Positions 25,020-64,000 of a stretch of DNA of 64,000 bases are shown in pieces. The stretch lies in sequence record PP680568.1; one strand, given 5' to 3'. Below the pieces are notes generated by a model. It saw only the letters and a list, made by a program, of their open reading frames with translations. It was not told where the DNA came from and did no database searches. A program made the translations under genes and the position numbers. Position 1 is the stretch's first letter. Every line of letters starts with the position of its first letter. The stretch comes from Enterococcus phage VRE9_2.

Positions 25020-25020
25020 T

Positions 25021-28685: not shown

Positions 28686-28854
28686 AAGTAGGAGACACTG
28701 TTCTTATCCTTAAAGATCTTGAAGATGTTGCTTGTAAAGGGTGTATTGGAGTAATTGAAGAGATAAATATAGTCTTGAATAAAGTGTATTTTGTTTCAAA
28801 AGAAGGCATTGAAATGAATTGTTCTTTTTTTGAAGATGAGTTGGAGGTAATCTA

Positions 28855-29121: not shown

Positions 29122-29182
29122 CTTTTTTAGCATAACATGTTATAATATTTATATAAGTTAGGAAGAAAAAACTTCCTAATAT

Positions 29183-29254
29183 GTCGCTATAGTGTAATGG
29201 ATAGCACAAGAAACTTCTAATTTCTAAGTTTAGGTTCGAGTCCTAATAGCGATG
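29183..29254 (+). tRNA. tRNA-Arg (anticodon TCT)
   Basis: Acceptor GTCGCTA/TAGCGAT, D-arm GTGT-AATGGATA-GCAC, anticodon arm AGAAA-CTTCTAA-TTTCT, T-arm TTAGG-TTCGAGT-CCTAA. Confidence 0.8.
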
Positions 29255-29259
29255 TTCAC

Positions 29260-29335
29260 AGTAGAATAGCTTATGTTTGGTTAAAGCACTCACCTTATAA
29301 GTGAGAGAGCGTGGGTTCGAACCCCACTTCTACTA
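29260..29335 (+). tRNA. tRNA-Ile (anticodon TAT), unusual UAU anticodon
   Basis: Perfect acceptor AGTAGAA/TTCTACT, D-arm GCTT/AAGC, anticodon arm CTCAC-CTTATAA-GTGAG, T-arm GTGGG-TTCGAAC-CCCAC. Confidence 0.7.
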
Positions 29336-29369
29336 TAAAGAATAAATAATGAAAGGAGAATCTCAAAAA

Positions 29370-29492
29370 ATGGAAGAAACATTAGATCGTGCAATAGAAT
29401 TATTAGAAGAAGCAGAAGATTTATTGAATAATGTTCATGCCTATGATAGCGACACATATAATTCTATTTGTGAATTTTTAGACTCTTTATAA
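29370..29492 (+). CDS. Small acidic ORF (40 aa) between tRNAs
   Basis: ATG 8 nt after GAAAGGAG; MEETLDRAIELLEEAEDLLNNVHAYDSDTYNSICEFLDSL. Confidence 0.35.
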   Translation: MEETLDRAIELLEEAEDLLNNVHAYDSDTYNSICEFLDSL

Positions 29493-29546
29493 TTAGGACA
29501 AAATGTCTTAAAGTATATGTAAATTATTTTAAAGACTTATACAGGT

Positions 29547-29602
29547 GCGAAATTAATTCAATAGGTAGAATTATTTAGATGGGTTCAAATCCCATATTTC
29601 GC
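29547..29602 (+). ncRNA. 56-nt armless tRNA-like element (perfect 7-bp acceptor GCGAAAT/ATTTCGC, D-arm ATTC-AATAGGTA-GAAT, T-arm ATGGG-TTCAAAT-CCCAT, no anticodon arm)
   Basis: Direct reading; only 7 nt (TATTTAG) between D- and T-arms; followed by the conserved AAAGAATCTTACAGCAAATAT trailer. Confidence 0.4.
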
Positions 29603-29717
29603 TTAGGTAAAGAATCTTACAGCAAATATCATATGTTTAATAGGCTAATTCAAATATATTATATAAGATTCTTGAAGTTATTTTTAGCCGATTAAGAGAT
29701 AAAGGAGATAAATAACT

Positions 29718-31214
29718 ATGACATTTTTAGATAATTTGAAAGAGGAAGCAACAGTTGGACGCACTTTCAATGGTGCAACTACTTATACTACTTCATTAAA
29801 TGCTAATGTTGATCTTTTTGCATTAGGTGGGTCTATGCGATACCAAAATGTTGGAGACAAGATTTCATTATTTGAAAAAGCATATAATGAAGACAGAGCT
29901 GTTGCATTGAGAAACCTAGTTTATATGCGAGATATTCGTAATGGTGGACTGGGTGAAAGAGCTATGTTCCACGCAGGAATTTGGTTCTTAGCTAAAAAGA
30001 AAGATGAAAAAGCACTTCATGTTATCATGAATAATGTAGCTGATTTTAGTCGTTGGGATGATCTATTTTTCATTATGAAACAAGATGAAAAATTGTTTGA
30101 TTATGGATTAATCATCATCAAAACTCAGCTTTTGGAAGATATGGACAATATGCGAAAAGGTAAAGAAATTTCTTTATTAGGGAAATGGCTACCTAATATT
30201 AATGCCAAAAGTGAAGAACGAAGAGCTTTTGGTCTTAGAGTTGCTAATGCTTTAGGATATACTAAACCTAGTGACTATAAGGTCTACCGAAAAATGTTAG
30301 TTAGATTAAGAGAAAAATTAGATTTAGTAGAAGTAAAATTAGCTGCTAAAGATTATGATTCAATTGATTTTTCTAAATTACCTTCTAGAGCAGGATTCAA
30401 GTATCGCTCAGCATTTTGGCGCCATATTTCAGATCGTTATTCTGAATTTTTAGAAGCTGTGAATAACGGCGAAGCTACAATGAATGGAAATTTGGTAATG
30501 CCAGATGAAATTATTGGAGCTTATGGATATCGGAGTTGTATTTCTTATGAAGAACAACCTGAATTAGAAGCTGCATGGAAATCTCTAAAAGATACTGTTA
30601 AGGGTTCTGACGAGAATGTAATTGTAGTTGCAGATACTTCTGCTTCTATGTGGGGTAAACCATGGGAAGTAGCAGAAGGTTTAGCAATTTATACTGCTGA
30701 ACGCTTAGAAGGACCATTCAAGAATAATTTTATCACTTTCTCTAGACGCCCACAATTGGTAACTCTACCAAGTAATTGTTCCTTACGAGATAAAATGAAC
30801 GAATATTCTCGTCATTCTATTATCGAAAACACAGATATTGAAGCAGTATTTAATCTTATTTTAGATACTGCTATCAAGAATAACACTCCAAAAGAAGAAG
30901 TTCCATCTAAAATTATCATTGTTTCAGATATGGAATTTGATCTTCAACGAGGAAATGACGTTACACATTTCAAACTTGCAAAATCTCGTTTTGAGGACGC
31001 TGGTTATGAAATGCCAGATGTAATCTTTTGGAATGTAGAAGCTAGATTAGGAAACTTGCCTGTTCGTTACAATGAACAGGGAGCAGCATTAGTATCTGGA
31101 TTCAGTACAAATATTCTAACTTCTATTTTGAATGGAAAATTAGAAACTCCAGAATCTATGATGTTAGAAACGTTGTCCAATCCAGCATTTGACTTCATTG
31201 ATGAAGCTATCTAA
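29718..31214 (+). CDS. DUF2828-like / von Willebrand factor A-like domain protein (TROVE/Ro-like family candidate)
   Basis: 498 aa; C-terminal ..VVADTSASMWGKP.. (DxSxS MIDAS-like) and overall resemblance to DUF2828 phage proteins. Confidence 0.5.
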   Translation: MTFLDNLKEEATVGRTFNGATTYTTSLNANVDLFALGGSMRYQNVGDKISLFEKAYNEDRAVALRNLVYMRDIRNGGLGERAMFHAGIWFLAKKKDEKALHVIMNNVADFSRWDDLFFIMKQDEKLFDYGLIIIKTQLLEDMDNMRKGKEISLLGKWLPNINAKSEERRAFGLRVANALGYTKPSDYKVYRKMLVRLREKLDLVEVKLAAKDYDSIDFSKLPSRAGFKYRSAFWRHISDRYSEFLEAVNNGEATMNGNLVMPDEIIGAYGYRSCISYEEQPELEAAWKSLKDTVKGSDENVIVVADTSASMWGKPWEVAEGLAIYTAERLEGPFKNNFITFSRRPQLVTLPSNCSLRDKMNEYSRHSIIENTDIEAVFNLILDTAIKNNTPKEEVPSKIIIVSDMEFDLQRGNDVTHFKLAKSRFEDAGYEMPDVIFWNVEARLGNLPVRYNEQGAALVSGFSTNILTSILNGKLETPESMMLETLSNPAFDFIDEAI

Positions 31215-31250
31215 ATTACCCCCTTTCTACCTCTTAATTGAGGTAGTTAC

Positions 31251-31324
31251 GCTTCTTTAGCTCAGTAGGTAGTAGCGCCAGTCTGAAGAACTGGAGGTCC
31301 CTGGTTCGACTCCAGGAGGAAGCA
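31251..31324 (+). tRNA. tRNA-Phe (anticodon GAA)
   Basis: Acceptor GCTTCTT/AGGAAGC, D-arm TAGCTCAGTAGGTAG, anticodon arm CCAGT-CTGAAGA-ACTGG, T-arm CCTGG-TTCGACT-CCAGG. Confidence 0.8.
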
Positions 31325-31332
31325 TTAATCCA

Positions 31333-31380
31333 GCCCAGGAAAGTGCCAATATTATATTCGCTCTCTTGGGCTTTTCATAT
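31333..31380 (+). terminator. Rho-independent terminator after tRNA-Phe
   Basis: GCCCAGG..CTTGGGC stem followed by TTTTCATATTT. Confidence 0.45.
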
Positions 31381-31441
31381 TTGAAAAAATATATTAATCA
31401 TGTTATAATTAATTATAAAGTTAATTAAGAATTTTAAAAGT

Positions 31442-31515
31442 GTCCCTGTCGCCAAGAGGCTTAAGGCTATGGATTGCAAACCCATAATACGTGAGTTCGA
31501 ATCTCACCAGGGACT
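31442..31515 (+). tRNA. tRNA-Cys (anticodon GCA)
   Basis: Perfect acceptor GTCCCTG/CAGGGAC, anticodon arm ATGGA-TTGCAAA-CCCAT, T-arm GTGAG-TTCGAAT-CTCAC; driven by the conserved TGTTATAATTAATTATAAAG promoter without RBS. Confidence 0.8.
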
Positions 31516-31542
31516 TTTAAATAAAAAGGGGTCGATAATAAA

Positions 31543-31839
31543 ATGGACAAAGAAAAAATTAAAGAATCTTGGAACTATTGTTTAGCCCAAAGTATTGGAG
31601 TTAGAAAATTAGCTTCTAAAAATGAAGCTATTAGAAAAGATAGTTTAGAAAAAAACATTGCTACTAAAACTGCCTTAGAAGTTTTAAAAGAGCAATTAAA
31701 TGTTTTAATTGAGATGCTGGAGAAAATTGATTTAGAAGAAGAACTTCTCTTAACTTGTCAAGAGAAAGCTGCGGTAGAGTATCTTATTGAAGTATATGAA
31801 AATCTTATTATTGTGAAAGAGGGGGAGCAACTTGACTAA
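31543..31839 (+). CDS. Hypothetical protein
   Basis: 98 aa. Confidence 0.5.
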   Translation: MDKEKIKESWNYCLAQSIGVRKLASKNEAIRKDSLEKNIATKTALEVLKEQLNVLIEMLEKIDLEEELLLTCQEKAAVEYLIEVYENLIIVKEGEQLD

Positions 31840-32476
31840 ATTTATTACAAGTGATTGGCATTTCTTTCATAATAATGCTTGTGGTCCAGAAGGATTCATT
31901 TCTACTAGAAAAAAGTTTTCCTCTGTAGAAGAGATGAACGATAATATTATTAAAACTATTAATCAAAAGGTTGGTAGAGATGATACTATTATTCATTTAG
32001 GAGATATTGGTTTTGGGAAACCTAAAAAATTGTTTGAAACATTAGAAAAAATCAATGGACAAATTATTTTAATTAAGGGAAATCATGATAGTTCAAAATT
32101 ATTTAAGTATATTGTAAATAATAATTATCATTATCCATATAGTAATCCTAAAAAACGTAAACAATCTCCTGACCGAGTTAAATTTTTAGTTGAAGAAGTT
32201 GGTTTAAGGGAAAAAATGAATGGTAAGGTTTACTATTTAACTCATTACCCATTTCAGTTAGGAGAACAACGTAAAAATATGCGTTCAATTTGTGGACATA
32301 TTCATGAGCAGATTGCTCCTGAGGCTAATATGATTAACGTAGGTATTGATTCTCCTGAAATTGCTTCAAAGATTTCTAATTTTGGAGAACCTCTTCTTCT
32401 GGAAGATGCAATAGAATTAGTTGATAAAAAATGGGAAAAATGGTATAATGATACTATAAGAATTTTGGGAAGTTAA
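31832..32476 (+). CDS. Calcineurin-like metallophosphoesterase
   Basis: SDWHFFH, LGDIGFG, GNHD motifs. Confidence 0.65.
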   Translation: MTKFITSDWHFFHNNACGPEGFISTRKKFSSVEEMNDNIIKTINQKVGRDDTIIHLGDIGFGKPKKLFETLEKINGQIILIKGNHDSSKLFKYIVNNNYHYPYSNPKKRKQSPDRVKFLVEEVGLREKMNGKVYYLTHYPFQLGEQRKNMRSICGHIHEQIAPEANMINVGIDSPEIASKISNFGEPLLLEDAIELVDKKWEKWYNDTIRILGS

Positions 32477-32489
32477 TCTTCCCTTTTAT

Positions 32490-32579
32490 GGAGCTATGAC
32501 TGAGAGGTTGAAGGTGACGCACTGCTAATGCGTTAGTCGGCATAAGGTTGGCTCATGGGTTCGAATCCCATTAGCTCCT
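32490..32579 (+). tRNA. tRNA-Ser (anticodon GCT), type II
   Basis: Perfect acceptor GGAGCTA/TAGCTCC, anticodon arm ACGCA-CTGCTAA-TGCGT, long variable arm, T-arm ATGGG-TTCGAAT-CCCAT. Confidence 0.8.
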
Positions 32580-35026: not shown

Positions 35027-35722
35027 CTAGTCTTTTTTATTTTGCCAATATTCTTTTATACCTACATTAATTTCTTCTTCATCAGGAATATAGATATCCC
35101 CAAAAACTTCTTCAATAGTTGGAAAATTACTTCTAACGATTTCATCCTTTACTTCAATTACAGCATATACTTTATATTCTCCAAATTTACCTTTTTTCTT
35201 TTGACATGCTAATTTAACTAAGCCCAATTTATCTAGTAAGTCTAAAATAGAATCCATAGCATCATAAGCTGAACCCGAAGATTTTTTACCTAATATTTCG
35301 GTAATCAAATAACGTTTAGTAAAGAAAAAGATTTTATTCTTATCTTGATAATACCACTGCATAGCTCGAAGAAAAGAATAAATTGTAATAACATTATCTG
35401 TCTGTATTTGATATAGGTATTTAAGTGTTTCAGGATGAATAGTAGTAAATAAATGTTTTATAGGGAGTTTCATTTTATCATTTTCTTCTAAAATAAAACC
35501 ATATTCTTTTAGCTTATTAATTTGACGATTTATGGTTCGGCTTGACACACATAATTCGTTTGCAGCTTCTTGACTAGAAAAGTCTTTTTTATTAATATAT
35601 CTTGGTTCTCCCTTTTTCCCATTCCATTTAGAAATTACCTGCAAATATCCATATAATCTATCAATATTTCTCAAACTTGTAAAATCTTGTGTCGTTGGAA
35701 TTTGATTTTTATGATTATTCAA
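35027..35722 (-). CDS. HTH-domain transcriptional regulator, lone minus-strand gene within a plus-strand block
   Basis: ..SQEAANELCVSSRTINRQINKLKEYGFILEE.. helix-turn-helix. Confidence 0.55.
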   Translation of the reverse strand: MNNHKNQIPTTQDFTSLRNIDRLYGYLQVISKWNGKKGEPRYINKKDFSSQEAANELCVSSRTINRQINKLKEYGFILEENDKMKLPIKHLFTTIHPETLKYLYQIQTDNVITIYSFLRAMQWYYQDKNKIFFFTKRYLITEILGKKSSGSAYDAMDSILDLLDKLGLVKLACQKKKGKFGEYKVYAVIEVKDEIVRSNFPTIEEVFGDIYIPDEEEINVGIKEYWQNKKD

Positions 35723-43803: not shown

Positions 43804-43989
43804 AGGTAAGGACCCCTCGTGGGTCTTTTTTTGTATTAGTCAGGATAATTTATCCTCTCTGTTTTATTATAACATTTTATACAGAAAAAATCAAGGGGTG
43901 CTGAGTTTTAGGAAAAAATCCTGGCTTTACGAGGCAAGCCTTTAACGTGGCAAAAATCTAGCGTGGTGGTCAGCATTAGGCTGGGTTCC

Positions 43990-44230
43990 GGCCGTGCGCG
44001 ACCGGCCAAAAAATAACACCCCATTATGAGAGAATTCTAATTTTCACAAATTAAAATAACGGTTTTGGGATTTTGGATTTTTATTCATGTTATTGAATAT
44101 TAATTCAAGAAGCTGAAAAGCCCGTCATATCAACGTTTTGGGGCGGTGTTATTTTATAAATTAAGTTTTTTCTGTTATTTTATGTTTTTTAGATAACAAG
44201 AGAGTTTTAATTTTTCACAAACTATTATTA
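43990..44230. repeat. Repeat-rich noncoding region: AAAATAACAC / GTGTTATTTT motifs plus GC hairpin GGCCGTGCGCGACCGGCC
   Basis: Multiple copies of ATAACAC and its complement within 250 bp of AT-rich noncoding DNA. Confidence 0.5.
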
Positions 44231-44378
44231 AAAAATAACAAAAACATTATTAGAAATTTCTAATTTTCTAATTTTGAGAAAAAATTGATTTTCAGAAAAT
44301 TTCATGAAAACTTTCAAAAATATTTTCATTTTCATAGATTAAAAAATAGTGAGATTTCTCTCACTATTTTCTTATTTC

Positions 44379-46517: not shown

Positions 46518-46619
46518 TTCTTTTATCCTCCCTTTATCTTATATACTTATTATAGGGGATAAACGATAAAAAGTAAAGCATTTTACACATTAAAATTATT
46601 AAAGTTTAATGAGAATTGT

Positions 46620-47310
46620 TTCTAATTTACACACAATTCGCCAGGCGTTATTTTATAATTAAATAACAGCTTTTCTTTGAACACATGTTATTTTATAAAC
46701 TTGTAAGCGCTTACAAACTGCGTCAGATCAAGCTTTCAATAGATTTTCAGAAATTTTCATTGTTGTTTCAATAACAAGCAAAAATTACATGTGAAATAAT
46801 TCACAAACATAAAATAACACCCAAGAGGAGAAAAAATAACACACTTTGACTTGTGCGCACATTCACATTCTCTTGCTCTCTTGGAATGAAAAGGCTGTGA
46901 AAGCTTGGTATAATAGGCTTTCTGATTGTGAAAAAATTCACATGCACGGACTTTTGGGATATTAAAATAACATTAAAAAACAATTAAATAACAAGCCAAA
47001 AACTTGACAGGGATAAAATAACACAGTAAAATGGCGCTCGCCAGCGAGCGGCCGAAAAATAACGTCCTCTATTTGTTATTTTATTCATTTCACAAACTTT
47101 AGTTTCAGGATTCTGTTATTTTATTTTTGAAAATCAGTTTTCAATTTATGAAAATGAAAATGAAAGCTTGATACATCAAGGTTTTGGGAACCTCGCCCCG
47201 CAATGTTATTTTATCTTCTTCCTTTTGGACTGTTATTTTATTTTATACATTTCACAAACTTCACTTTTAAAATAACACGTATTTCTTTGTGAAATTTTTC
47301 ACAAGTAAAA
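46620..47310. repeat. Noncoding repeat region: more than 12 copies of (A)AAATAACA(C)/GTTATTTTAT, one TGTAAGCGCTTACA palindrome (46702-46715), GC hairpin CGCTCGCCAGCGAGCG (47033-47048)
   Basis: Direct reading; no ORF above 60 aa except spurious 46801..46983. Confidence 0.55.
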
Positions 47311-47570
47311 TTAAAAAAAGATGAGAAAAATCTCATCTTTTATTTTTATGATAATCACTAAATTTTTTTAGCTCTGCTGTGTTAATAATATATTCATTAC
47401 ATAAATCTAATAGAAAATCTTCAAAACTTTCTTTTTCATTTCCTCTTGTCTCCCAAAGTCTTTCTAATCTTTTATACATCTTTTTATTACTTAAAATAAT
47501 CATTTAAATTCATTTCCTTTCCTTTACTATATATAGTATAACATGAAAATTTTTTCGTGTCAACTATTAT

Positions 47571-47822: not shown

Positions 47823-47879
47823 TTAATTCATTCCTTCCTTAACTTTCTATAATTATTATATCAAGGAAAGGGCTGTTTG

Positions 47880-48182
47880 TCAACCCTTTTCCTCAATTTC
47901 TTTGATAATTCTTTTTTCATCTTCTGGTAACATTTGAATAACAGTTTTTACTACTATAGTTTTATCTGTTTCATTACAAACATATAAACGAGAACCAAAA
48001 ACCCACAATTTAAATTCATTCTCTTCATTTTTTGGCGTTTTCTTCCTTACGTTTTTAATTTGAAAATCATTAAGAATTGCCGAACGAACTTGTCTATTAT
48101 TCATTTGTTCTTTAGCTACTCTTTCTAAATAACGCTCTTTAGCGTGTTGTGTGATAATAACTTTTTTGGTGAATAAAAGCAT
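47880..48182 (-). CDS. Small protein (array member)
   Basis: 100 aa; promoter AAGGGTTGACT..N17..TATAAT at 48190-48245 (minus). Confidence 0.5.
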   Translation of the reverse strand: MLLFTKKVIITQHAKERYLERVAKEQMNNRQVRSAILNDFQIKNVRKKTPKNEENEFKLWVFGSRLYVCNETDKTIVVKTVIQMLPEDEKRIIKEIEEKG

Positions 48183-48240
48183 TTGTTACAACTCCTCTCT
48201 ATATTTTTATTATATATTATAAGGGTTGAAAAGTCAACCC

Positions 48241-48621
48241 TTAACTCTCAAAAAACTTTTTAGTAATTTTTTCTTTTACATTAATTTTTTCAATATTTTC
48301 TTTTGCTACGAAATCAGTTACATCGATACTATGGATTCTATGCTTATCATTGTCACTAATAAAATTATTCGACCCAAAAAGGTTATATATTTCTATTAAT
48401 TCATGGGCTTCTTTATCCTCAAAAAATTCAACTAGTCTATAGTCATATTCATTTTGAATTTTTCGTTTTCTTTTTGCGACTAAAGAACCTTTATAGTATA
48501 ATTTAATAGTCATATTATTAGTTAATAAGTTAAACTTTCCAGTATAAATGCAAGGTTCATCTACCCCAATTAGTTTTACTTTCTTTTCTTCAAATGTTTT
48601 AAAAATTTGCATTTCATTCAC
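48241..48621 (-). CDS. Small protein (array member)
   Basis: 126 aa. Confidence 0.5.
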   Translation of the reverse strand: MNEMQIFKTFEEKKVKLIGVDEPCIYTGKFNLLTNNMTIKLYYKGSLVAKRKRKIQNEYDYRLVEFFEDKEAHELIEIYNLFGSNNFISDNDKHRIHSIDVTDFVAKENIEKINVKEKITKKFFES

Positions 48622-48666
48622 TCCTTATTCTTTATACTATTATTATAACAGTTGGTAAAGGGTTTG

Positions 48667-49116
48667 TCAACCCTTTACCTTATATTTTTTAGGACTTCCT
48701 CCTAAGTCTTCTAAGTATCCTTTTTCTTTCATCTTTTTCAATCTGCTAGGTGTCTGGCGGTTTGTGTATTTGTCAGCTACCAGTAAATGAAAATCTTTAT
48801 TTTGAAAATACTCTTTACCACTAAAAGCAATTTTTACTACATTATTAAATAAGTTGTTAATTTCATCATCTGTAATTTTTGCCTTTGCATTTTTGGCTTT
48901 CTTGATTTCTTTTTGTTCTTTTTCAAAATCTGTTTTCTTGTCACTTTCAAACTTATCAAACTCTCGTAGCTCGATAGCTTCAGCAAGATTCAACTCTAAT
49001 TTTTCAACCATTTCATCAATTAGTTTCCAATCGTGAGAAGTAATCTTTTCGCCGTTAGAAAATGTTTCTTGCATATAACACCATTCCTTTCCTTTACTAT
49101 ATATATAGTATAACAT
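48667..49116 (-). CDS. Small protein of the six-member paralog family (C-terminus NRQTPSRLKKMKEKGYLEDLGGSPKKYKVKG)
   Basis: 149 aa; C-terminal 35 aa nearly identical to 7021..7389. Confidence 0.55.
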   Translation of the reverse strand: MLYYIYSKGKEWCYMQETFSNGEKITSHDWKLIDEMVEKLELNLAEAIELREFDKFESDKKTDFEKEQKEIKKAKNAKAKITDDEINNLFNNVVKIAFSGKEYFQNKDFHLLVADKYTNRQTPSRLKKMKEKGYLEDLGGSPKKYKVKG

Positions 49117-49144
49117 GTAAGTAAAAGGGAGTCAACCCTTTTAC

Positions 49145-49402
49145 TTAATTTTCTTTATTAAATTTTTCTAATCGTTTTAATAAAATTTTTCCATTTATTT
49201 TGGCTACTAATTTACCAATTAAACCGTTTGACATAGATAAATTTTTAAACCTTAAATGATAAAAATCACTTTTATTTTCTCCTTTCCTAAATTCATAAAC
49301 TAGCTTATCATTGAATATTTGATGATGAATAAAAATCTTTATTTCTGGGAAACTTTCAATAATATAATAATCTCCACCATTTACAAAAATATCTGTTTGC
49401 AT
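49145..49402 (-). CDS. Small protein (array member)
   Basis: 85 aa. Confidence 0.45.
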   Translation of the reverse strand: MQTDIFVNGGDYYIIESFPEIKIFIHHQIFNDKLVYEFRKGENKSDFYHLRFKNLSMSNGLIGKLVAKINGKILLKRLEKFNKEN

Positions 49403-49632
49403 TTAAATTCATTCCTTTCTTAACTTTCTATAATAAGTATAACAGATAAAACTAAAAAAATCAAATAATAAATACATGAGTTTTAGGATATTTTTTCTCA
49501 TTAAACTTTTAGAAAAAATTTTGATTTTTTTCTTGACATAGACCTAATTTTGTGGTAAAATTTCCGCCCGAAAACGGCAAATTTGTTCACTATTTCACAA
49601 GCCTTCAATATAAAAAAGATAGCCTTTTTAGG

Positions 49633-49881
49633 CTATCCCAAAATATGATCGTATAAGATATATAAGCTACCCCAACTATAAAGATAAAGAAAAATCAAAC
49701 TAATTACATTTTTAAAAGTGAAAACAAACCCAATAGAGAAAGAATAGATTGTAACAATTATTGGTGTAAAAATAAAAAATAATACTAGCAATATGACTGC
49801 AAGACCAACGAGCGCCACTATAATTTTTTCTTTCTTCTCTTGGGCTTTTCTTTTTCTTTTGTAACTTCTTGTTATTAGCAT
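49633..49881 (-). CDS. Small membrane protein (array member)
   Basis: 82 aa, hydrophobic core. Confidence 0.45.
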   Translation of the reverse strand: MLITRSYKRKRKAQEKKEKIIVALVGLAVILLVLFFIFTPIIVTIYSFSIGFVFTFKNVISLIFLYLYSWGSLYILYDHILG

Positions 49882-49932
49882 ATAATATCATTCCTTTCTA
49901 TAGTTATATTATAGCAAAGAAAAAGAGTTGTG

Positions 49933-50664
49933 TCAACTCTTTTTCTTATTTAAATTTTCTTCATTCACAATCCGCCACGCTTGAGGGTTAATAGAATAAG
50001 CATGGATAGGAATTTCTTTTTCTTGGTTCAATAGAGAATGTAAAATTTTTGTTTCGTCTATGCTATCTTGCAAAGCAGTATGCTCTTCAATGTAATTTGT
50101 ATCATTAAACAAAAATTTATAGGTTGCTTCTGCGCCGGTTTGATAGTTCCCTTTTTCTGTTAAAAGATTGTGAGTTTTTGCAAACTCTTTATATTCTGGT
50201 GTATTTAATACAGTATAAGCGGCTACGGGATAAATATCAATTAAAAAGAAATTATCAAAGAAATCAAAATCTTTTCCCGAAAAGAAGAAATGAGTTTTTG
50301 CAATTACACGAGTATCAAAGCCCAAGTTATAGGCGCCAACGTAAGCAACGTTATATTTTTTACAATCTTTTTTAAGTTGCCCGATAATGTTTGCCCACTT
50401 GCTAACAATAATTCTTTTTTCAAGTAATTTTGTAAAATATACTTTTCCATCAACTACATTTTCATCAATCAAGAAAGCACGTTTTTTATTCAATGCTTGA
50501 AATTTAAATTGTTCTACCATATAAGAACGTTCTACTAAAATATTGCCTTGTTTATCTGAAATAGCCCAACCAATATCGAAAACTGATTGATAAGGCATTC
50601 CCTCGCCCTCTTTTGTCGTTTCAGTATCTAAAATCAAAAATGTTTCTTGCATGTAATTTTCCAC
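49933..50664 (-). CDS. DnaQ-like 3-prime-5-prime exonuclease, paralog of 44379..45137
   Basis: FLILDTETTKEG.. Exo I motif; ..EEHTALQD.. Exo III-like. Confidence 0.6.
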   Translation of the reverse strand: MENYMQETFLILDTETTKEGEGMPYQSVFDIGWAISDKQGNILVERSYMVEQFKFQALNKKRAFLIDENVVDGKVYFTKLLEKRIIVSKWANIIGQLKKDCKKYNVAYVGAYNLGFDTRVIAKTHFFFSGKDFDFFDNFFLIDIYPVAAYTVLNTPEYKEFAKTHNLLTEKGNYQTGAEATYKFLFNDTNYIEEHTALQDSIDETKILHSLLNQEKEIPIHAYSINPQAWRIVNEENLNKKKS

Positions 50665-50745
50665 CTTTTCAATAAATTTATTTGTTCCTTAACTACTATT
50701 TAAGTATAACAAAAGGGCTTGAGCTTGTCAAGCCCTTTTACTAAC

Positions 50746-51192
50746 TTATTTCAATTTGTAAGCTACTTTTTTATCCTTTACAACTTTTTCAAATTCTTCA
50801 TTGTCTACTAATGGTTTCATGATTGCCGTTAATTTTTGAGGTGTAGCGCCAACAAGCCCAATCAATTCAGCAATTTCATTCAGTGTTAAGGCTGTTTCTG
50901 GTTCTAAGTCAAGAAATGCTTTTCGTACTTTATCCATGTTTTCAGCTTTTTCTTTTGCTGTTTTGCTTACGCCTTTTTTGCCACGTTTTGCCTTGTCTTG
51001 TTTTACTTGTTGCATGTGCATAGCTTCCAATTTTTCAGTTAATTCTTCTGGTTGAAATTCTACTACAGATTTCATTTTATCTGTAATATTAGTTGGCACT
51101 TCAATTGCTAGGTCTTTCCATGCTTGTGCTAAAATAGTTGCGACTTCCAATGCTTGTGCTTTTGTAATTTGTTTTTCCATGATAAATTCCAC
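50746..51192 (-). CDS. Small protein of the six-member paralog family (MEFIMEKQI..)
   Basis: C-terminal ..ATPQKLTAIMKPLVDNEEFEKVVKDKKVAYKLK. Confidence 0.55.
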   Translation of the reverse strand: MEFIMEKQITKAQALEVATILAQAWKDLAIEVPTNITDKMKSVVEFQPEELTEKLEAMHMQQVKQDKAKRGKKGVSKTAKEKAENMDKVRKAFLDLEPETALTLNEIAELIGLVGATPQKLTAIMKPLVDNEEFEKVVKDKKVAYKLK

Positions 51193-51343
51193 CTTTTTAA
51201 AATATTTTTTTGTAACAATTTCTTATTACATTCTTAGTATAAAACATTTTGATTTGTTTGTCAAGTGTTTTATACTAATTTCTAACAAGAAATTTTTTAT
51301 TGCTTTCTTTATACTCTTATTATAGAGTATTGAGAAAGGCTTG

Positions 51344-51547
51344 TCAAGCCTTTTCCCAATTTTCTTTTAAGAAAGTAACAACGCTATAACTTGTAATAGT
51401 TGTTAAAGCAATAAGCAACAAGCTTTGAATAGAGAAGAAACCAGTGTACAAAATAGCTTGATAAGTGAAGTAGAACGGTACTAAAATACCTCCTGCAATT
51501 AAAATTCCTACAAAAACGATTAATAATACTAATTCTGATAATTTCAT
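51344..51547 (-). CDS. Small membrane protein
   Basis: 67 aa two TM. Confidence 0.4.
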   Translation of the reverse strand: MKLSELVLLIVFVGILIAGGILVPFYFTYQAILYTGFFSIQSLLLIALTTITSYSVVTFLKENWEKA

Positions 51548-51616
51548 TTTAAAACTTCCTTTCCTTTTCTATATATTAAGTATATCATTGTTAAAATGGT
51601 TTGTCAATACTTTTGG

Positions 51617-51775
51617 CTAAATAATTTCAAATTTTCTATTTTTATATTCTTCTTTGAAATCTTGGATAGCTTGCTCATAAGTATCAGCTTCAACTAAAAT
51701 TTCTTCAATTTTAGGATAACCACTATCCAAACTAATTTCATCTAAGAATTTAACAAGTAAAATATATTTATTCAT
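51617..51775 (-). CDS. Small ORF (52 aa), not in track
   Basis: MNKYILLVKFLDEISLDSGYPKIEEILVEADTYEQAIQDFKEEYKNRKFEII; preceded on minus strand by TTGACA-N17-TATAAT. Confidence 0.35.
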   Translation of the reverse strand: MNKYILLVKFLDEISLDSGYPKIEEILVEADTYEQAIQDFKEEYKNRKFEII

Positions 51776-51792
51776 TTCTTTCATTCCTTTCC

Positions 51793-51933
51793 TTATCTTG
51801 ATTCTATTATAACACGACTTAATTCATCTGTCAACACTTTTATCATTTTATCTGCTTTTTCTTTTCGGTCAATTTCTTTTTCTCTTTGGTTCTTTCTAGC
51901 AATCAATTTCAATCTTAAATATTTGTTTTTCAT
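51793..51933 (-). CDS. Small basic ORF (46 aa), not in track
   Basis: MKNKYLRLKLIARKNQREKEIDRKEKADKMIKVLTDELSRVIIESR. Confidence 0.3.
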   Translation of the reverse strand: MKNKYLRLKLIARKNQREKEIDRKEKADKMIKVLTDELSRVIIESR

Positions 51934-51948
51934 TTTAATCATTCCTTT

Positions 51949-52149
51949 CTATAATTCTATATTAACAGAGTTTAAAGCTTCTGTCAAGCATTTTATTAAA
52001 TTTTTTGCATTTTCTGGTGTCAGATAAACTTCTGAATAAAAGTCTTTCTTATCATCAGTAACTAAAATAATTCTAGGTACTTCATTAGTTGAAATATTAA
52101 TTTCACAATTATCTACCTCATTAGGTTTAATAGTTTTATCATATTTCAT
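51949..52149 (-). CDS. Small protein (array member)
   Basis: 66 aa. Confidence 0.4.
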   Translation of the reverse strand: MKYDKTIKPNEVDNCEINISTNEVPRIILVTDDKKDFYSEVYLTPENAKNLIKCLTEALNSVNIEL

Positions 52150-52333
52150 TTTTGTTCCCTCCTTAACTTTCTATAATTATTATAGCATAGACCAAGAGGA
52201 AAGACAATAATAAAACACTGTAATTTTAATTAGAATTTTCTCATTTTGTATGAAAGATGAAAGCGCTTTCATTTTATGGTTCCCTCCCTCCTTACAGTTT
52301 CAGTATAACAAAAAAATAAGGGTTTGTCAACCC

Positions 52334-52741
52334 TTATTTTTCTTTTAATTCTACTTTATAAGTTGTATTTTCACCAATCATAAAAAATAAAATCTTTGCT
52401 GTTTTAGGATATTCATATTTTGTAATAGTTACTTTATTTTCTTGCTGATTCTTTTTAAAGCTTAAAATTTGACTTGCTTCAATACTTTTTGTTCCTGTTT
52501 CAGTTGCATAAGTGAAAACTGTTTGGCTGCTATTCATTTTATGAGTTTCTTCTGAAAAATTTCCACTAATAAACGTTTCTTGTGTGGTACTAACTTCAGT
52601 CTGTTTATCACTATATAGCATAAGACCACCAAAGAAAATCAAACCCCCTAATATAAAACTTCCTAAAAACTTAAACCCTGCATAGGTATCAAGTTTCCAA
52701 TCTAACCAACACATAGCAATAAACATAATAATATAAATCAT
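52334..52741 (-). CDS. Membrane-anchored protein (array member)
   Basis: 135 aa, two N-terminal TM segments. Confidence 0.5.
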   Translation of the reverse strand: MIYIIMFIAMCWLDWKLDTYAGFKFLGSFILGGLIFFGGLMLYSDKQTEVSTTQETFISGNFSEETHKMNSSQTVFTYATETGTKSIEASQILSFKKNQQENKVTITKYEYPKTAKILFFMIGENTTYKVELKEK

Positions 52742-52784
52742 TCTTACAACCTTCTTTCTTTATTTATATATTTATTATAACAAG

Positions 52785-52830
52785 TAAAAAAGGGTTTGTC
52801 AACCCTTTTACTTAAATTCATTATATAAAT
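52785..52830 (-). promoter_or_regulatory. Representative array unit: hairpin AAGGGTTTGTCAACCCTT carrying -35 TTGACA on minus strand, then 17-nt spacer and TATAAT
   Basis: Minus-strand reading GGGTTGACAAACCCTTTTTACTTGTTATAAT; equivalent units at about 47861, 48222, 48646, 49124, 49921, 50715, 51330, 51595, 51820, 51965, 52308, 53262, 53740, 54310, 54740. Confidence 0.6.
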
Positions 52831-53233
52831 TTTCTAATTCAATTTCTTTCTTTTTCTGTTTCTCTCTTTCTTCCACATAATAAAACATATCTCTTACAAA
52901 AGGTAAGTCAATCAATCTGAGATTTCCTTTTTTATATTCTGATAACATTAATAGATTTTCTTTTTCTGTTGTTTCATCCCATTTATCTTTATAACTATAT
53001 TTCACAGAATAAATAATTTCTACTTTCTTTTTTCTTGAAAACATTTTTTTCTTTTCTACAAAATTCATTAATGAGATTGTAAAATATTCAGTTCGCCAAT
53101 CTCTAGCAATAAGAACATTTTCAATTATAAGAAATTTATATCCCTCTATCTCTTCATGTAATTCTACTATCGCAGTTTTTTCATCTAATCTCTTGATATA
53201 TTCTTTTTGTTCTACTGTAAGCATTTCATTCAC
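52808..53233 (-). CDS. Small protein (array member)
   Basis: 141 aa. Confidence 0.5.
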   Translation of the reverse strand: MNEMLTVEQKEYIKRLDEKTAIVELHEEIEGYKFLIIENVLIARDWRTEYFTISLMNFVEKKKMFSRKKKVEIIYSVKYSYKDKWDETTEKENLLMLSEYKKGNLRLIDLPFVRDMFYYVEEREKQKKKEIELENLYNEFK

Positions 53234-53285
53234 TCCTTATTCTTTATATTATTATCATAACAGAAAGAGATAATCCTGTCAAGGA

Positions 53286-53612
53286 TTATCTTCTTAAAAT
53301 TTTTGCAACAAACACATCTCGTCTTATTTGTTCGGCTTGCTCAAGATATATTAATTCAAACGAATTTTTATAGATACGATGATTTTTTATATCTAAAGTC
53401 TTTTGTGTTGAGAAAAAAACATCTAAAGCATTTTTTGAAGCTGTTATTATATCATTATCATAGAAACCTTCTTTTAATTGCTCTTTTATATATTCTGCAA
53501 AATCTTTATGAAGCGTTGTAATCAAAAGATGATGATTCATCAAACGTTTTTCAGTTCTTTCAACCTCTTTCTTCATTTCGTTAATTTTTTCTTGCATTTC
53601 TTTTTCTAGCAT
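53286..53612 (-). CDS. Small protein (array member), coiled-coil-like N-terminus
   Basis: 108 aa. Confidence 0.45.
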   Translation of the reverse strand: MLEKEMQEKINEMKKEVERTEKRLMNHHLLITTLHKDFAEYIKEQLKEGFYDNDIITASKNALDVFFSTQKTLDIKNHRIYKNSFELIYLEQAEQIRRDVFVAKILRR

Positions 53613-53781
53613 GTTTAATCACTCCTTATTCTTTATAATATAATTATATCACAGTTATAGGATAAGTCAATAGAAAAGCGCCAAAAAGTTTAAAAATATT
53701 TTTCCAATGAAAGCGCTTACATTTCTTTCCTCTCTTGGTACAATATTATTGTAGCACAAAAAAAGGACTTTTGCAAGTCCT

Positions 53782-54752: not shown

Positions 54753-54989
54753 TCAATAAATATTTTCATTTAACCATTTAACAAAATCATTATACACTTG
54801 ATGAATATCAAATCTATTTTGAAATTGCATATTAAAATCATATTTATTTCGTAACCATTCACTGAGTGCATAGCTATCAACTAAAGGGCTAGTAAGTTCT
54901 TTCTTATATTTAGATAGGTACTTTCGTTCTAGGTCATATTCTAAAGCAAATTCTAAAATCTCAATAGCTTCAAGAGTCTCGTTATTCAT
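54753..54989 (-). CDS. Small protein (first gene of the leftward array)
   Basis: 78 aa. Confidence 0.45.
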   Translation of the reverse strand: MNNETLEAIEILEFALEYDLERKYLSKYKKELTSPLVDSYALSEWLRNKYDFNMQFQNRFDIHQVYNDFVKWLNENIY

Positions 54990-55019
54990 TTTGAATACCT
55001 CTTTTCAATAGGTTTTGGG

Positions 55020-56300
55020 GCTATTCATCTAATCCCTATAAATAGTATAATATATAAAACCCTAATTGTCAAATGATTTTTAACATTAGACAAAATATTT
55101 TTATATACATTATGTGTGCATATATACATTCGATAACAGATGTTATTTTAATAGACTATCGAGAGATGTAAGCGCTTACAAAAGATTTACTTAAACAGAT
55201 GAATTGAAAGCGCTTTATTTTACGTTTTAAGAGCTTTTCATATTATTTGGCATAATTATCTATTAAGCATTATAAAACCCAAGAGAAGAGCAAAGAAGTA
55301 TATTGCGGACGTTGTTATTGTCTTTTATTAAGGCGCTATAATAAATAGTCTTATATAAAATAACATTTATCAGTTATTATAACAAGTGTTATTTTTGGTG
55401 GCAGAGATGTGATGAGCTAATATATTGTGAAACATTTCACGCATGTACAGTCATTCATATAATAATTTATTCATATGTATTGATGAACAGATGAACATAT
55501 ATTCATATGTATTCACTGCTAGTCTGTGAACGTTGTCACAGATGTAAGCGCTTACAACTCATTGACGCAAGGTGTCAAGTAAAATTACTTGGCGCACATA
55601 TGTTCGGTTGGCTCCCAGCAACTTGATGAATAACAAAGGTTATTTAATTTTATAGTTCGGCATTTTAAATAACAAGTGTTATTTAAATATACTTAAATAC
55701 TTGAATAGATATACATATGAACATATATTCATATATTGTGGCAGTAGGTACAGATGGACTAGACCAATCATAACTCTAAACGATTGTGAAATATTTCACA
55801 AGGATTCCACTCAATGTTAGAAATTAGTTGATATTATTAAATAACAAGTGTTATTTTTGGTGGCAGTAACGCAGATGAGCGTTATTTAATAAACAAGGGA
55901 GTTAGTGGCAAGGGATGCACAGGTCGTTATTTAATTAGGTCAATAAGTTTTTGTAACAGTAGTAAAAGGCTTGTTATCATTAGGGTTTGGGCGTTTTCAG
56001 GAATGGAATTGAGATTGGAATTCGATTTACGATTGTTATTTTAGCCCATGGGGGTTGGGTTCATGCGGGTGTTATAGGCTGTTATTTTTTCTGAAATAGC
56101 TTTTGGTGGGGATGGTTTTGGGATTTGTGAAAATATTCACAAGTCAATCAGGGAAGCCGCGGCAACAACACTTAATCAGAGCTTCAAAATTGAAAATCGC
56201 ATGACTATCTTTTTTCTACAACGTCTCACGGTTGGGGTAGATTTATCTATAGTTCTGCCCAGTTTTTATATTGATACCAGAGTAAATGTAAATAAAGGAG
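55020..56300. repeat. 1.3-kb noncoding region with operator-like palindromes: TGTAAGCGCTTACA (55167-55180, 55544-55557), AAATAACAAGTGTTATTT (55667-55684, 55839-55856), 24-bp direct repeat AACAAGTGTTATTTTTGGTGGCAG (55381, 55843), many GTTATTT half-sites; candidate origin/regulatory hub
   Basis: Direct reading; no credible ORF. Confidence 0.6.
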
Positions 56301-56309
56301 GAGTTCGAC

Positions 56310-62765: not shown

Positions 62766-64000
62766 AAGTTATAATTCACTTGTACTTTATTTTATAATAA
62801 ATAAAATATAAAATAAAGGAGTTTTTAAAAATGGAAGAAGATAAAAAATTTACTTATTGGTTTTACAAAATAGAAAATAAAATAAACTCTAAAAAATATA
62901 TTGGTCTAACTAGTAATATAGCTAGAAGACAGTTGAGGCATTTTACAGATTTACTGACACAAAGACATCATAATTCTTTTTTACAAAAAGAATATAATTT
63001 GTTTGGTAAAGAAGCTTTTTCTTTTGAAATTATAGAAGAAAAAAGTTTAAGTGTAAAAGAAGCTTCTCAAAGAGAGATTTTTTGGATTCAGAATTTTGAT
63101 TCATATAATAATGGATATAATCAAAATCCAGGAGGTCTTGGAGGACATACTGGAGCTACAAATGGAGGTTCTCATTTAATAGAATCAGATATATATGCAA
63201 TTAATTCTGCATTAGAATTTTCTTCGAGACCTGGTGCAGTTTTATCTGAAATTTTTAATGTAACAACAACAACAATAAGTAGAATTAAAAAAGGAAGTAG
63301 CCATTTCCAATACACACTAAAATATCAAAAGTTGGATTATGATAAAAGATTTGAAATTTTTAAATCTTTTTGTCAAAGCTCAGACTTTATTTCGAAAAAA
63401 CGAAATAGTACTATTATGCCAACCTCAAAAAGAAAACTGAATGAATTTCAAGTTCATTGTGTTTTACTGAATGAAGAACAAGGAAGAATAGTTCCTTTGA
63501 AGAGATTAGCAAGATATTTTAATGTTAGAGGAAATGTTTTAACTGAAATAATAAACGATAGGTCTTATAGAGATTATCGTGATACCTTCCTTAAAAAAAC
63601 AAGTGAAGAAAAACAAGAGATGGCGTCATTCTTGCGTGAGCAAGAAAAGCAAACTTCTCGAATTGCTGGGACCCCTTTGAGAGCAACAAACCACAATATT
63701 TCTGAAAAGAAAATATGAAGGTTAGAAAATTGTTGCTTATGAGGCAATCAGCAGCCAAGCCCCTAAGTCAAAATGATATGGGGAAGGTTCAACGACTAAG
63801 TATCCTAGTACACTAGGTAGCGGGAAGCTCTTCTTAATAAGAAGATGAAGATATAGTCTGGTCTATATAGAAATATATAGGAAATTGATTAATGGTCAAT
63901 TTCATAACATCACGCGGCAGGCTTTAAAGATCATTTTAGTTATCAAAAACAAATTCAGCTCTTAGTATGGCAATTAATTAAACCTGGTACTGCTATTATT
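62766..64000 (+). mobile_element. Group I intron (5-prime boundary approximate, 3-prime end beyond window) carrying GIY-YIG homing endonuclease; interrupts terL
   Basis: TerL frame terminates prematurely; intervening GIY-YIG ORF; P7-like GGTTCAACGACTA at 63786-63798, same 12-mer as in nrdD intron. Confidence 0.55.
62831..63718 (+). CDS. GIY-YIG homing endonuclease (intron-encoded)
   Basis: ..FTYWFYKIENKINSKKYIGLTSNIARRQLRHF..FSFEIIEE..EIFWIQNF..GYNQN. Confidence 0.75.
   Translation: MEEDKKFTYWFYKIENKINSKKYIGLTSNIARRQLRHFTDLLTQRHHNSFLQKEYNLFGKEAFSFEIIEEKSLSVKEASQREIFWIQNFDSYNNGYNQNPGGLGGHTGATNGGSHLIESDIYAINSALEFSSRPGAVLSEIFNVTTTTISRIKKGSSHFQYTLKYQKLDYDKRFEIFKSFCQSSDFISKKRNSTIMPTSKRKLNEFQVHCVLLNEEQGRIVPLKRLARYFNVRGNVLTEIINDRSYRDYRDTFLKKTSEEKQEMASFLREQEKQTSRIAGTPLRATNHNISEKKI

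Follow-up and report, generated by a model that had tools for sequence, protein, structure and literature searches.

We analysed a 64,000-nucleotide stretch of the genome of Enterococcus phage VRE9_2 (PP680568.1), referred to below as the window, and in particular a non-coding region at positions 54990 to 56309, which we call the hub. The hub lies between a leftward array of early genes and a rightward operon that encodes, in order, a 66-amino-acid (aa) protein, a tail-fibre-like protein of 620 aa whose end is a Peptidase_S74 tail-fibre chaperone, a protein of 339 aa that PHROGs calls a sigma factor, PhoH, terminase and portal. The terminase gene is located approximately 4 kb downstream of the hub. 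A first-pass annotation, made from the sequence alone, had described the region as non-coding DNA separating the leftward early array from rightward tail and packaging genes, and the gene order agrees with this description. Five Enterococcus phages in GenBank (VRE9_4, VRE9_3, H1, EF1 and EF5), with genomes of 134–142 kb and E. faecium or E. faecalis as hosts, match the hub at 94–95% identity.

In the annotation of the complete relative VRE9_4 (134 kb), a block of structural, tail and lysis genes reads rightward; after it come replication genes (leftward), nucleotide-metabolism and tRNA genes (rightward), an array of about 25 small leftward genes without known function, the hub, and the rightward operon. 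The first of these blocks includes an 8-kb tape-measure gene, which identifies the phage as a siphovirus. The head genes of the relatives carry SPbeta-type YonG_N and YonD_N domains, and no lysogeny genes are annotated in this phage group, as judged from VRE9_4. Overall, this is a large (~134 kb) virulent Enterococcus siphophage, some of whose head-gene domains are of the SPbeta type.

A blastn search in 'distant' mode returned only the five ~95%-identical phages as nucleotide relatives of the hub, and more distant hubs were therefore reached through the neighbouring 620-aa protein. This anchor recovered relatives at 33–50% protein identity (L013–L017, L093, L094 and L097), with a hub of 0.75–1.6 kb at the equivalent position. 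One of them, L093 (NZ_JBEMAR010000008.1, 139,141 bp), has the size of a phage genome, carries the hub together with the operon, and was assigned to a Carnobacterium sp. metagenome-assembled genome (MAG). Most likely it represents an entire genome of this phage family that was binned along with the host DNA, and Carnobacterium would then be a second host genus.

The hub is non-coding. The open reading frame (ORF) listing contains no ORF of at least 40 aa from 54989 to 56201, and we rejected a coding gene in the hub because the 117-aa ORF annotated here in H1 and EF1 is broken by two in-frame stops in the window. PHANOTATE calls in the hubs of VRE9_3 and VRE9_4 are tiny and score near zero. Rfam 15 at gathering score, run over the whole window, places no family in the hub, and at E values up to 1 over 43.5–56.6 kb it gives only two chance miRNA matches, both outside the hub; ARAGORN finds no tRNA in the hub. 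A module at its 3' end (56085..56200, plus strand), composed of a G-rich tract, a Rex-like box, GCCGyGGCAAC and a T-run, can be aligned across the relatives with 33–50% protein identity. A structured RNA in this module was unsupported, the single-sequence fold having z = -0.98 and an RNAalifold stem around the Rex-like box having an unfavourable covariation term. At the other end of the hub, a strong sigma-A-type promoter (TTGACA-17-TATACT; 55044..55072, minus strand) serves the first leftward early gene (54989..54753). This promoter scores 11/12 in the promoter scan and is invariant in all close relatives, and its equivalent (TTGACAAAT...) is found in L013 and L093.

The first-pass annotation reported two families of palindromes and a long direct repeat in this region. 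These elements are present as listed, although coordinates are off by 1–4 nucleotides, and they occur far above chance; both families are real, but at least five are present. All five, represented by TGTAAGCGCTTACA, AAATAACAAGTGTTATTT, TTGTGAAATATTTCACAA, ATATGAACATATATTCATAT and CGCACATATGTTCG, lie far above shuffle expectation, and an unbiased 8-mer enrichment across six homologous hubs gives the same families as its top matches.

The first family, TGTAAGCGCTTACA, is found at 46702, 55167 and 55543 (previously placed at 55544), with copies carrying one and two mismatches at 53708 and 52258, for a total of 5 sites versus 0.09 expected from shuffles. Positions 52255, 53708 and 55205 had been described as half-sites. 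The last is a true half-site at about 55206 (TTGAAAGCGCTTTA, 55204..55217; homologous to CAGCGCTTTATTTG in L013), but the others are the full palindromes TGAAAGCGCTTTCA (52258) and TGAAAGCGCTTACA (53708). The 16-nucleotide catabolite-responsive element (cre), the operator of CcpA, has the consensus WTGNNARCGNWWWCAW / TGWAANCGNTNWCA with critical G3, C14 and central CG, as given in two sources (PMC3074128, PMC8262876). When flanking nucleotides are included, all five window copies match WTGNNARCGNWWWCAW at 16/16 positions (46701, 52257, 53707, 55166 and 55542), where 0.16 strand matches (~0.08 sites) are expected. The copies vary only at the degenerate positions of the consensus, namely 4 and 13 (W), R7, Y10 and the A/T flanks, and a position matrix of 21 cre sites from four diverged phages reads W-T-G-W-A-A-R-C-G-Y-T-T-W-C-A-W.

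Two of these boxes, both ATGTAAGCGCTTACAA, are within the hub. The copy at 55166..55181 is invariant in relatives, and that at 55542..55557 has an outer W position as its only variable column. A third lies in a second cluster (46701–46716), and none of these three has a confident promoter partner. A cre box that overlaps a sigma-A promoter or lies just downstream of it would serve repression, and one upstream of the -35 element activation. The remaining two, ATGAAAGCGCTTACAT (53707..53722) and ATGAAAGCGCTTTCAT (52257..52272), are located at approximately +19..+35 of a leftward TTGCAA-17-TACAAT promoter and +23..+38 of a leftward TTGACA-17-TATACT promoter, respectively. At ~20–38 nucleotides downstream of strong promoters, these predicted operators occupy classical repressor positions. 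The box at 52257 also overlaps the start codon of a 30-aa ORF (MKALSS..., MKALSSFIQNEKILIKITVFYYCLSSWSML; 52179–52271, minus strand) that has a strong Shine-Dalgarno sequence, and both the ATGAAAGCG start of this ORF and the box are kept in L013, L015, L016 and L017. We predict that the TGTAAGCGCTTACA family comprises CcpA operators.

A second family, TTGTGAAATATTTCACAA, was overlooked in the first-pass annotation. It is found at 55784, with variants at 55425, 56125, 46789, 46926 and 47287. The operator of Rex (ROP) has as its consensus the 18-nucleotide palindrome TTGTGAA-N4-TTCACAA with an A/T-rich spacer (PMC3441419), which is matched at 14/14 positions at 47287, 55784 and 56125, at 13/14 at 46789 and 46926, and at 12/14 at 55425; a scan allowing up to two mismatches gives 7 sites versus 0.84 expected. 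The Rex boxes differ from one another in the N4 spacer only. The perfect box TTGTGAAATATTTCACAA at 55784..55801 is invariant in relatives and identical to the core of a ROP oligonucleotide that was co-crystallised with Rex (PMC8376106). Another perfect box, TTGTGAAAATATTCACAA (56125..56142), is within the conserved G-rich module, about 185 nucleotides upstream of the first rightward gene. The Rex-operator-like box TTGTGAAACATTTCACGC (55425..55442) has two mismatches (one in relatives) and overlaps the -35 element of a plus-strand TTCACG-16-TATAAT promoter-like site, and the box at 46926 is at approximately +5..+22 of an extended -10 promoter (46886–46914). These last two predicted sites also occupy classical repressor positions. 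We regard the family as predicted Rex operators, with presumptive Rex binding and a presumptive sign of regulation. A Crp/Fnr-type protein (ArcR) is another possible reader of the core TGTGA-N6-TCACA, and sequence does not distinguish the two. A 51.7-kb metagenomic contig from a 46%-identity relative (L012) starts exactly within the promoter-proximal Rex-like palindrome (L012 1–14), which is probably an assembly break at a repeat rather than a genome end.

The fifth family belongs to the phage lineage and consists of the palindrome AAATAACAnnTGTTATTT with the half-site ATAAAATAACA. Its main form, P1 (AAATAACAAGTGTTATTT), is present at 55667 and 55839 as had been reported, the degenerate copy given as 55376 is at 55377, and a further degenerate copy is found at 55628. 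There are 6 strand matches to P1 versus 0.73 expected. The accompanying direct repeat, said to be 24 bp, exists but is 26 nucleotides long (ATAACAAGTGTTATTTTTGGTGGCAG) and begins at 55379 and 55841. Its first copy, with a P1 palindrome (55379..55404, plus strand), opens a 111-nucleotide module that is duplicated in VRE9_4. The second (55839..55866, plus strand) overlaps a TTGATA-18-TATTTT extended -10 promoter-like site, and the central dinucleotide is the only part of it that varies in relatives. The arms of the 8-2-8 palindrome at 55667..55684 are invariant, and none of 60 P1 arm columns is variable in close relatives. Two further members are ATAACAGATGTTAT (55133..55146), for which the same variant is found in L013 at 9379, and ATAACAAAGGTTAT (55630..55643), with one mismatch. 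The symmetric 8-2-8 structure of P1, in which the central dinucleotide is free, presumably reflects recognition by a dimer. The ATAAAATAACA half-sites form three clusters, at 44.0–44.25 kb, at 46.6–47.3 kb and in the hub, and 21 of the 31 occurrences of AAATAACA in the 64 kb fall within 2.1 kb.

We also considered the right arm of P1 as an extended -10 element or a promoter for a phage sigma factor. This was rejected as the principal explanation because conservation in L093 extends symmetrically over both arms but not to the flanks, and because L014 retains the sigma-like gene yet lacks P1. A candidate binder of the P1 and half-site family, proposed from its sequence, is a 231-aa winged-helix protein encoded at 35027–35722 on the minus strand. 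Its gene is a lone leftward gene within a rightward block, and the protein carries HTH_11, matches a PHROG named 'ScpB', and has a weak match, in the helix-turn-helix (HTH) only, to a replication-initiator PHROG. No P1 site was found in the promoter region of this gene.

Two further families resemble known operators less closely. The site CGCACATATGTTCG (55593..55606) is one mismatch from the Firmicutes LexA (SOS) consensus CGAACATATGTTCG (PMC2248561). The mismatch is in the GAAC-N4-GTTC core (CGAACRNRYGTTYC), so we have not classified this copy as an SOS box, although the same sequence occurs in L013. Perfect cores are found in the hubs of L093 (three), L014 (one) and L094 (one), where 0.10 are expected. 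P4, also overlooked previously, is represented by AGATGAACATATATTCATAT (55489..55508), which is ARG-box-like (TGAAyWWWWATTCA), and by ATATGAACATATATTCATAT (55715..55734), which overlaps the -10 element of a TTGAAT-17-TATATT promoter-like site. The P4 core TGAACATATATTCA differs from the ARG box TGAAT-W4-ATTCA, the operator of ArgR/AhrC, by one mismatch, a C that is constant in all copies, and ATGAACATATATTCATATG is present in four to five copies in L014. The enrichment of ARG boxes is weak (6 sites versus 2.2 expected), and the only ARG-box-like pair with proper spacing is in the third cluster (44074 and 44094; the usual pair spacing is 20–21 bp). Finally, the near-palindrome TGGACTAGACCA (55755..55766) has an identical 12-mer in L093 and resembles a GntR/HutC (NagR/DasR-type) operator.

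The palindromes are conserved in related phages, a point on which the first-pass annotation had made its proposal depend. In close relatives, 6 of 214 alignment columns within motifs are variable, whereas the remainder of the hub has 123 variable columns out of 1105 (Fisher p = 4e-5); as judged from this comparison, the motif sites are under purifying selection in relatives of ~95% identity. We also counted sites in seven hubs totalling 9.6 kb, namely that of the window and six distant ones (L015 and L017, which are close to L013, were left out), with expectations from composition-matched shuffles. These hubs contain 8 perfect cre boxes (0.05 expected), 10 Rex boxes (0.01), 5 perfect LexA cores (0.10) and 18 perfect P1 sites (0.01). 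Individual hubs combine the families in a mix-and-match fashion. L014 carries cre, Rex and P4 sites without P1, L093 has seven P1 sites identical to those of the window together with cre and LexA sites, and L094 has Rex and LexA sites without cre. Operators that remain constant across such diverged phages would fit a constraint imposed by conserved host proteins. In VRE9_4 (L001; 8400–8520, aligned to window position 55397), the 111-nucleotide module (GTGGCAG...Rex-like box...P4) is present as a tandem duplicate, and the hub thus evolves by module duplication.

Sites of these families are confined largely to the early region. In VRE9_4, all matches to Rex, P4 and the half-site, and the convincing P1 matches (0–1 mismatch), fall in the ~12-kb early region at 116–128.3 kb, as do all cre matches except one, which is in a coding sequence. 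The small leftward genes each have their own TTGACA-17-TATAAT promoter, often with the -35 element in a hairpin loop, and the leftward array is therefore an early module dependent on host RNA polymerase. Its promoters belong to a 64-nucleotide repeat family with ten copies at 47841–53303 (for example 48628–48691 and 52760–52823), in which TTGACA occupies the loop of the G+C hairpin AAAGGGTTGACAAACCCTTT; this hairpin also resembles the terminator of the upstream gene.

Two more non-coding clusters are found in the early array. The second (46518..47332) contains the cre box described above, Rex boxes at 46789, 46926 and 47287, and at least 14 ATAAAATAACA half-sites. The third (43804..44378), at the left end of the array, contains ATAAAATAACA half-sites, the ARG-box-like pair and a CodY-like site at 44287. 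The two clusters share a module of ~220 nucleotides (43998–44199 and 47044–47257; 62% identity, E = 2e-11) with a G+C hairpin, TTTCACAAA, GGTTTTGGGA and several GTTATTTTAT half-sites. Within the second cluster, a plus-strand unit at 47004–47341 opposes the leftward early genes. It consists of a good sigma-A promoter (TTGACA-17-TAAAAT) followed about 300 nucleotides later by a bidirectional terminator (47316–47341), and could produce an antisense or small RNA. A similar promoter-hairpin-terminator unit is found in L014 at 676–810.

The first-pass annotation proposed that the hub is a candidate replication origin or master regulatory switch carrying operators for phage DNA-binding proteins. The regulatory part of this proposal agrees with our findings, as the palindromes are conserved, of dimer type, located between divergent units, and in several cases at repressor positions relative to sigma-A-type promoters. 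The assignment to phage proteins fits less well, because the first family and the Rex family are exact host CcpA and Rex consensus sequences and no phage regulator was detected. Neither Pfam and PHROG scans of 25 early-region proteins nor the full VRE9_4 annotation revealed an HTH domain or a protein resembling LacI, Rex or ArgR. With neighbouring proteins also covered, a phage-encoded regulator homologue was rejected.

On this evidence we favour, with middling confidence, a reading in which the hub is a transcription-control region where global regulators of the host, together with one factor of the phage lineage that reads P1, gate promoters used by the host RNA polymerase. The hub would be a mosaic of short dimer-type operators serving as the central transcription control of the phage. 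Cre boxes would be read by CcpA-HPr(Ser-P), a sensor of glycolytic flux, and ROP boxes by Rex, a sensor of the NADH/NAD+ ratio. The SOS-box family, degenerate in this phage and perfect in relatives, would add LexA as a third input, the ARG-box-like P4 family may be a fourth, and AAATAACAnnTGTTATTT with its half-site ATAAAATAACA would be read by a dimeric DNA-binding protein specific to the lineage. Early genes and hub promoters would use sigma-A RNA polymerase of the host, and host sensors occupying their operators would block or modulate transcription leaving the hub in both directions, into the early array on one side and toward the genes for the sigma-like protein, packaging and the tail on the other. 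In this way, how far the lytic programme advances would be linked to the state of the cell with respect to carbon, redox and DNA damage. Our analysis shows the sequences themselves, their excess over expectation, their confinement to the early region, their conservation and their placement relative to promoter-like sites, from which we infer binding by CcpA, Rex and LexA and the sign of any regulation. The CcpA and Rex families suggest that the phage reads, or manipulates, the metabolic state of its host. The nearest published link, a circumstantial one, is that E. faecalis acquires mutations in ccpA and ptsP when challenged with other lytic phages (PMC8924694).

Several observations weigh against this reading. 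For most hub sites, the position with respect to a confidently predicted promoter is unclear, and the promoter scan of the hub reveals no strong sigma-A promoter directed rightward. The repertoire of sites differs among relatives, with cre missing in L094 and L097 and P1 missing in L014. The promoter-proximal Rex-like box has an N3 spacer instead of N4 in L013, L014 and L093, which should impair Rex binding, as dimer binding requires the conserved spacing, although the spacer is N4 in all window sites and in other boxes of L014 and L094. CodY boxes (AATTTTCWGAAAATT) are not enriched in a scan with up to three mismatches (37 matches versus 32 expected), with isolated good matches at 44287 and 46742. 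The tentative ARG-box and NagR assignments are one-mismatch resemblances. P1, the commonest element, has no assigned binder and could have a different function, such as that of an origin. Accession and name searches on this phage group yielded incidental citations only. Lastly, phage proteins that read cre-like boxes may exist, since a family of small winged-helix-like proteins, absent here, accompanies cre-like arrays in other phage contigs.

These arrays were found in unrelated IMG/VR phage contigs. By our estimate, isolated exact hits to cre or ROP arise in IMG/VR at roughly the rate expected by chance; they were disregarded, and only clusters were considered. Clusters or arrays of perfect cre-consensus boxes are present in L059 (3604–3739), L078 (847–1170), L076 (420–489), L073 (600–2250; the same contig as L060), L040 (5990–8340), L041 and L055. 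The six boxes of L059 recur every 24 bp and directly precede a TTGTAA-17-TATAAT promoter; in L078 about 12 boxes follow a period of 27–28 bp, and in L073 14–17 surround strong promoters. L019 (IMGVR_UViG_3300045988_163471, 94.7 kb, 26% GC) has two arrays, at 1–700 and 2300–2860, with a total of ~25 Rex-operator-like boxes (WTGTGAAANNNTTCACAA) at a period of ~29 bp, and stems from the metagenome that also yielded the window's own contig. Beside the cre arrays of three independent contigs are genes for a family of ~80-aa winged-helix-like proteins (…NSAHLTALVNRGLVV…) without Pfam or PHROG assignment (L073 715–957, 1578–1823 and 2252–2500; L040 6224–6445 and 7797–8030; L059 6913–7173). This family is a candidate phage cre-binding protein or CcpA-controlled gene.

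Four other explanations were weighed. It is possible, though we consider it doubtful, that all of the palindromes are operators of phage-encoded proteins, with the likeness to cre, ROP and SOS boxes being coincidence or deliberate mimicry by which phage proteins compete with or replace the host regulators. For P1 and its half-sites, which are specific to the lineage, no host match could be assigned; the early array encodes ~25 small proteins without known fold, a lone leftward winged-helix protein (35027..35722) exists, and cre-like arrays in L073/L060, L040 and L059 sit beside one to three paralogous genes of the 80-aa family. However, neither the window nor the whole VRE9_4 genome contains a homologue of that family, and the early proteins have no detectable DNA-binding domain. 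Moreover, two or three unrelated families correspond to optimal operators of different host global regulators, each varying only at the degenerate positions of that regulator, and they stay constant while phage proteins diverge to 33% identity, whereas co-evolving pairs of phage repressor and operator usually drift. A second alternative is that Firmicutes phages might carry 'operator sponges' that reprogram host carbon and redox metabolism without a phage protein, the hub being a dispersed form. We think this improbable. Hundreds to thousands of optimal cre and ROP sites on the amplified genome would titrate CcpA and Rex off the chromosome and de-repress, for the benefit of the phage, host genes for carbon uptake and NAD+-regenerating fermentation. 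The phage sites are perfect palindromes, or 'super-consensus', while none of the E. faecalis host cre sites that we examined from the list in PMC8262876 is a perfect palindrome, and many hub sites have no obvious promoter partner. The tandem arrays in other contigs, with six cre boxes at a 24-bp period in L059, 8–14 in L078, L040 and L073, and ~25 Rex-like boxes at a 29-bp period in L019, point the same way, and it is conceivable, if unlikely, that such arrays of 6 to 25 copies are the extreme form of a sponge. In the present phage, however, a genome contributes just ~5 cre and ~6 Rex sites, and these are dispersed, with several at classical operator positions; arrays in some of the other phages also co-occur with a candidate phage binder.

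The two remaining explanations concern the phage DNA itself. The origin named in the first-pass annotation gained no positive support, and we consider it improbable, both for the hub as a whole and for P1 and the ATAAAATAACA clusters serving as iterons for a phage initiator whose firing is modulated by host factors. A short site in multiple copies, in both orientations and in three clusters, surrounded by AT-rich DNA (28% GC), is what one would look for in an origin, the tandem duplication in VRE9_4 resembles variation of iteron number, and the winged-helix protein at 35027–35722 has the weak HTH-only match to a 'replication initiation protein' PHROG mentioned above. The hub nevertheless contains no DnaA boxes and has no adjacent initiator gene. 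The replication genes (polymerase, DnaB-like helicase and others) are ~50 kb away and are adjoined by a different divergent promoter region (6.6–7.0 kb), and GC skew shifts only with gene orientation. P1 is missing in L014, L094 and L097 although the hub is kept, which would be odd for an essential origin, and cre, Rex and LexA boxes are not origin elements. We consider it very improbable that the hub is a physical feature of virion DNA, such as the inner boundary of a terminal redundancy (as in SPO1), an injection stop (as in T5) or a packaging signal placed upstream of the terminase operon. The early array is bounded by repeat clusters, amounts to ~12 kb or ~9% of the genome, and consists of small genes with their own strong host-type promoters; the terminase gene is nearby, and one contig (L012) ends inside the last Rex-like box. 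Yet a contig break in a repeat is an expected assembly artefact, the hub occupies one place in each record with no second copy, nothing in the sequence marks termini, and the host-operator consensus of the repeats would be left unexplained.

Other features of the hub and the window were also observed. A CAGATG or AGATG, in every case on the plus strand, immediately precedes most operator-like boxes (55136, 55164, 55201, 55406, 55487, 55539, 55753 and 55872), with GCGATG at the same places in relatives. The distance from GTTATTT to AGATG was discarded as a signal because it is inconsistent (17, 21 and 23 nucleotides), and a sigma-54-type reading of TGGCAG was discarded by inspection because the spacing is wrong. 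Inverted repeats of the form CCAAGAG...CTCTTGG, with loops of 20–130 nucleotides, recur in non-coding DNA of the window (6735–6745/6865–6877, 46822–46832/46875–46890 and 55277) and of distant relatives (L013 8690–8740, L014 2566–2740 and L093 4695–4740). A group I intron (Rfam RF00028, 95 bits) is located in the terminase region at 63583–63880, and the terminase area of relatives contains genes for HNH, GIY-YIG and LAGLIDADG homing endonucleases. The rightward nucleotide-metabolism block includes 17–18 clustered tRNA genes at 23218–32579.

If the reading as a control hub for host regulators is correct, a virulent phage would possess a metabolic and stress checkpoint made solely of host sensors, and there would be a direct molecular link between the nutritional and redox state of Enterococcus and the outcome of infection. 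Phage therapy against vancomycin-resistant Enterococcus (VRE) would then vary in efficacy with the carbon source and with oxygen, and mutation of ccpA or rex could offer a route to tolerance. Clustered perfect cre or ROP boxes in non-coding DNA provide a searchable signature for phage genomes, and the arrays in unrelated contigs suggest that the phenomenon is widespread and undescribed. The use of host operators by phages is itself already known, with Spo0A in phi29 and LexA in temperate phages. In the literature, we found neither a description of a conserved hub in which a family of large virulent phages combines optimal operators for CcpA with those for Rex nor one of such operator arrays in other phages.

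LexA boxes are present in the control regions of coliphage 186 (tum), CTXphi and Bacillus phage GIL01. In these cases, as with the perfect GAAC-N4-GTTC cores in relatives of the present phage, an operator of a host repressor is found in phage regulatory DNA. However, those phages are temperate or chronic and LexA governs their induction, whereas the present group has no annotated lysogeny genes and the SOS-like copy in the window itself has one core mismatch. Iteron-type origins such as lambda ori and SPP1 oriL likewise have short binding-site repeats that are clustered in AT-rich non-coding DNA and vary in copy number between strains. The hub differs in that it lacks an adjacent initiator gene and DnaA boxes, its repeat family is missing in some relatives that keep the hub, and most of its other repeats match transcription-factor operators. 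In T5 a repeat-rich non-coding region lies beside the pre-early genes, and in SPO1 a host-takeover module is in the terminal redundancy. As in these phages, small early genes with strong host-type promoters abut more than 1 kb of non-coding direct and inverted repeats; the present phage, however, is a siphovirus sharing SPbeta-type YonG_N and YonD_N domains, and is not known to have a terminal repeat or stepwise injection.

The closest phage precedent is phi29, a Bacillus phage in whose early promoter region Spo0A boxes have reportedly been described by Meijer, Castilla-Llorente and Salas. Both are strictly lytic phages of Firmicutes with operators for a host global regulator in an early control region, by which lysis is, or in the present case may be, gated by host physiology. 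Here the candidates are CcpA, Rex and LexA instead of Spo0A, the sites are predicted, and several families are combined in a 1.3-kb hub and spread over a 12-kb early region. If correct, our reading would add the principal carbon and redox regulators of Firmicutes to the precedent set by phi29 and Spo0A. On the host side, the control region of E. faecalis arcABCRD has sites for ArgR1/ArgR2, for CcpA and for the operon-encoded Crp/Fnr regulator ArcR (PMC3319582). It resembles the hub in packing cre, a TGTGA-N6-TCACA palindrome and ARG-box-like sites into one sigma-A control region of Enterococcus. In contrast, the phage hub is ten times larger and controls no metabolic operon; each type of site is present more than once, and a lineage-specific palindrome is added.

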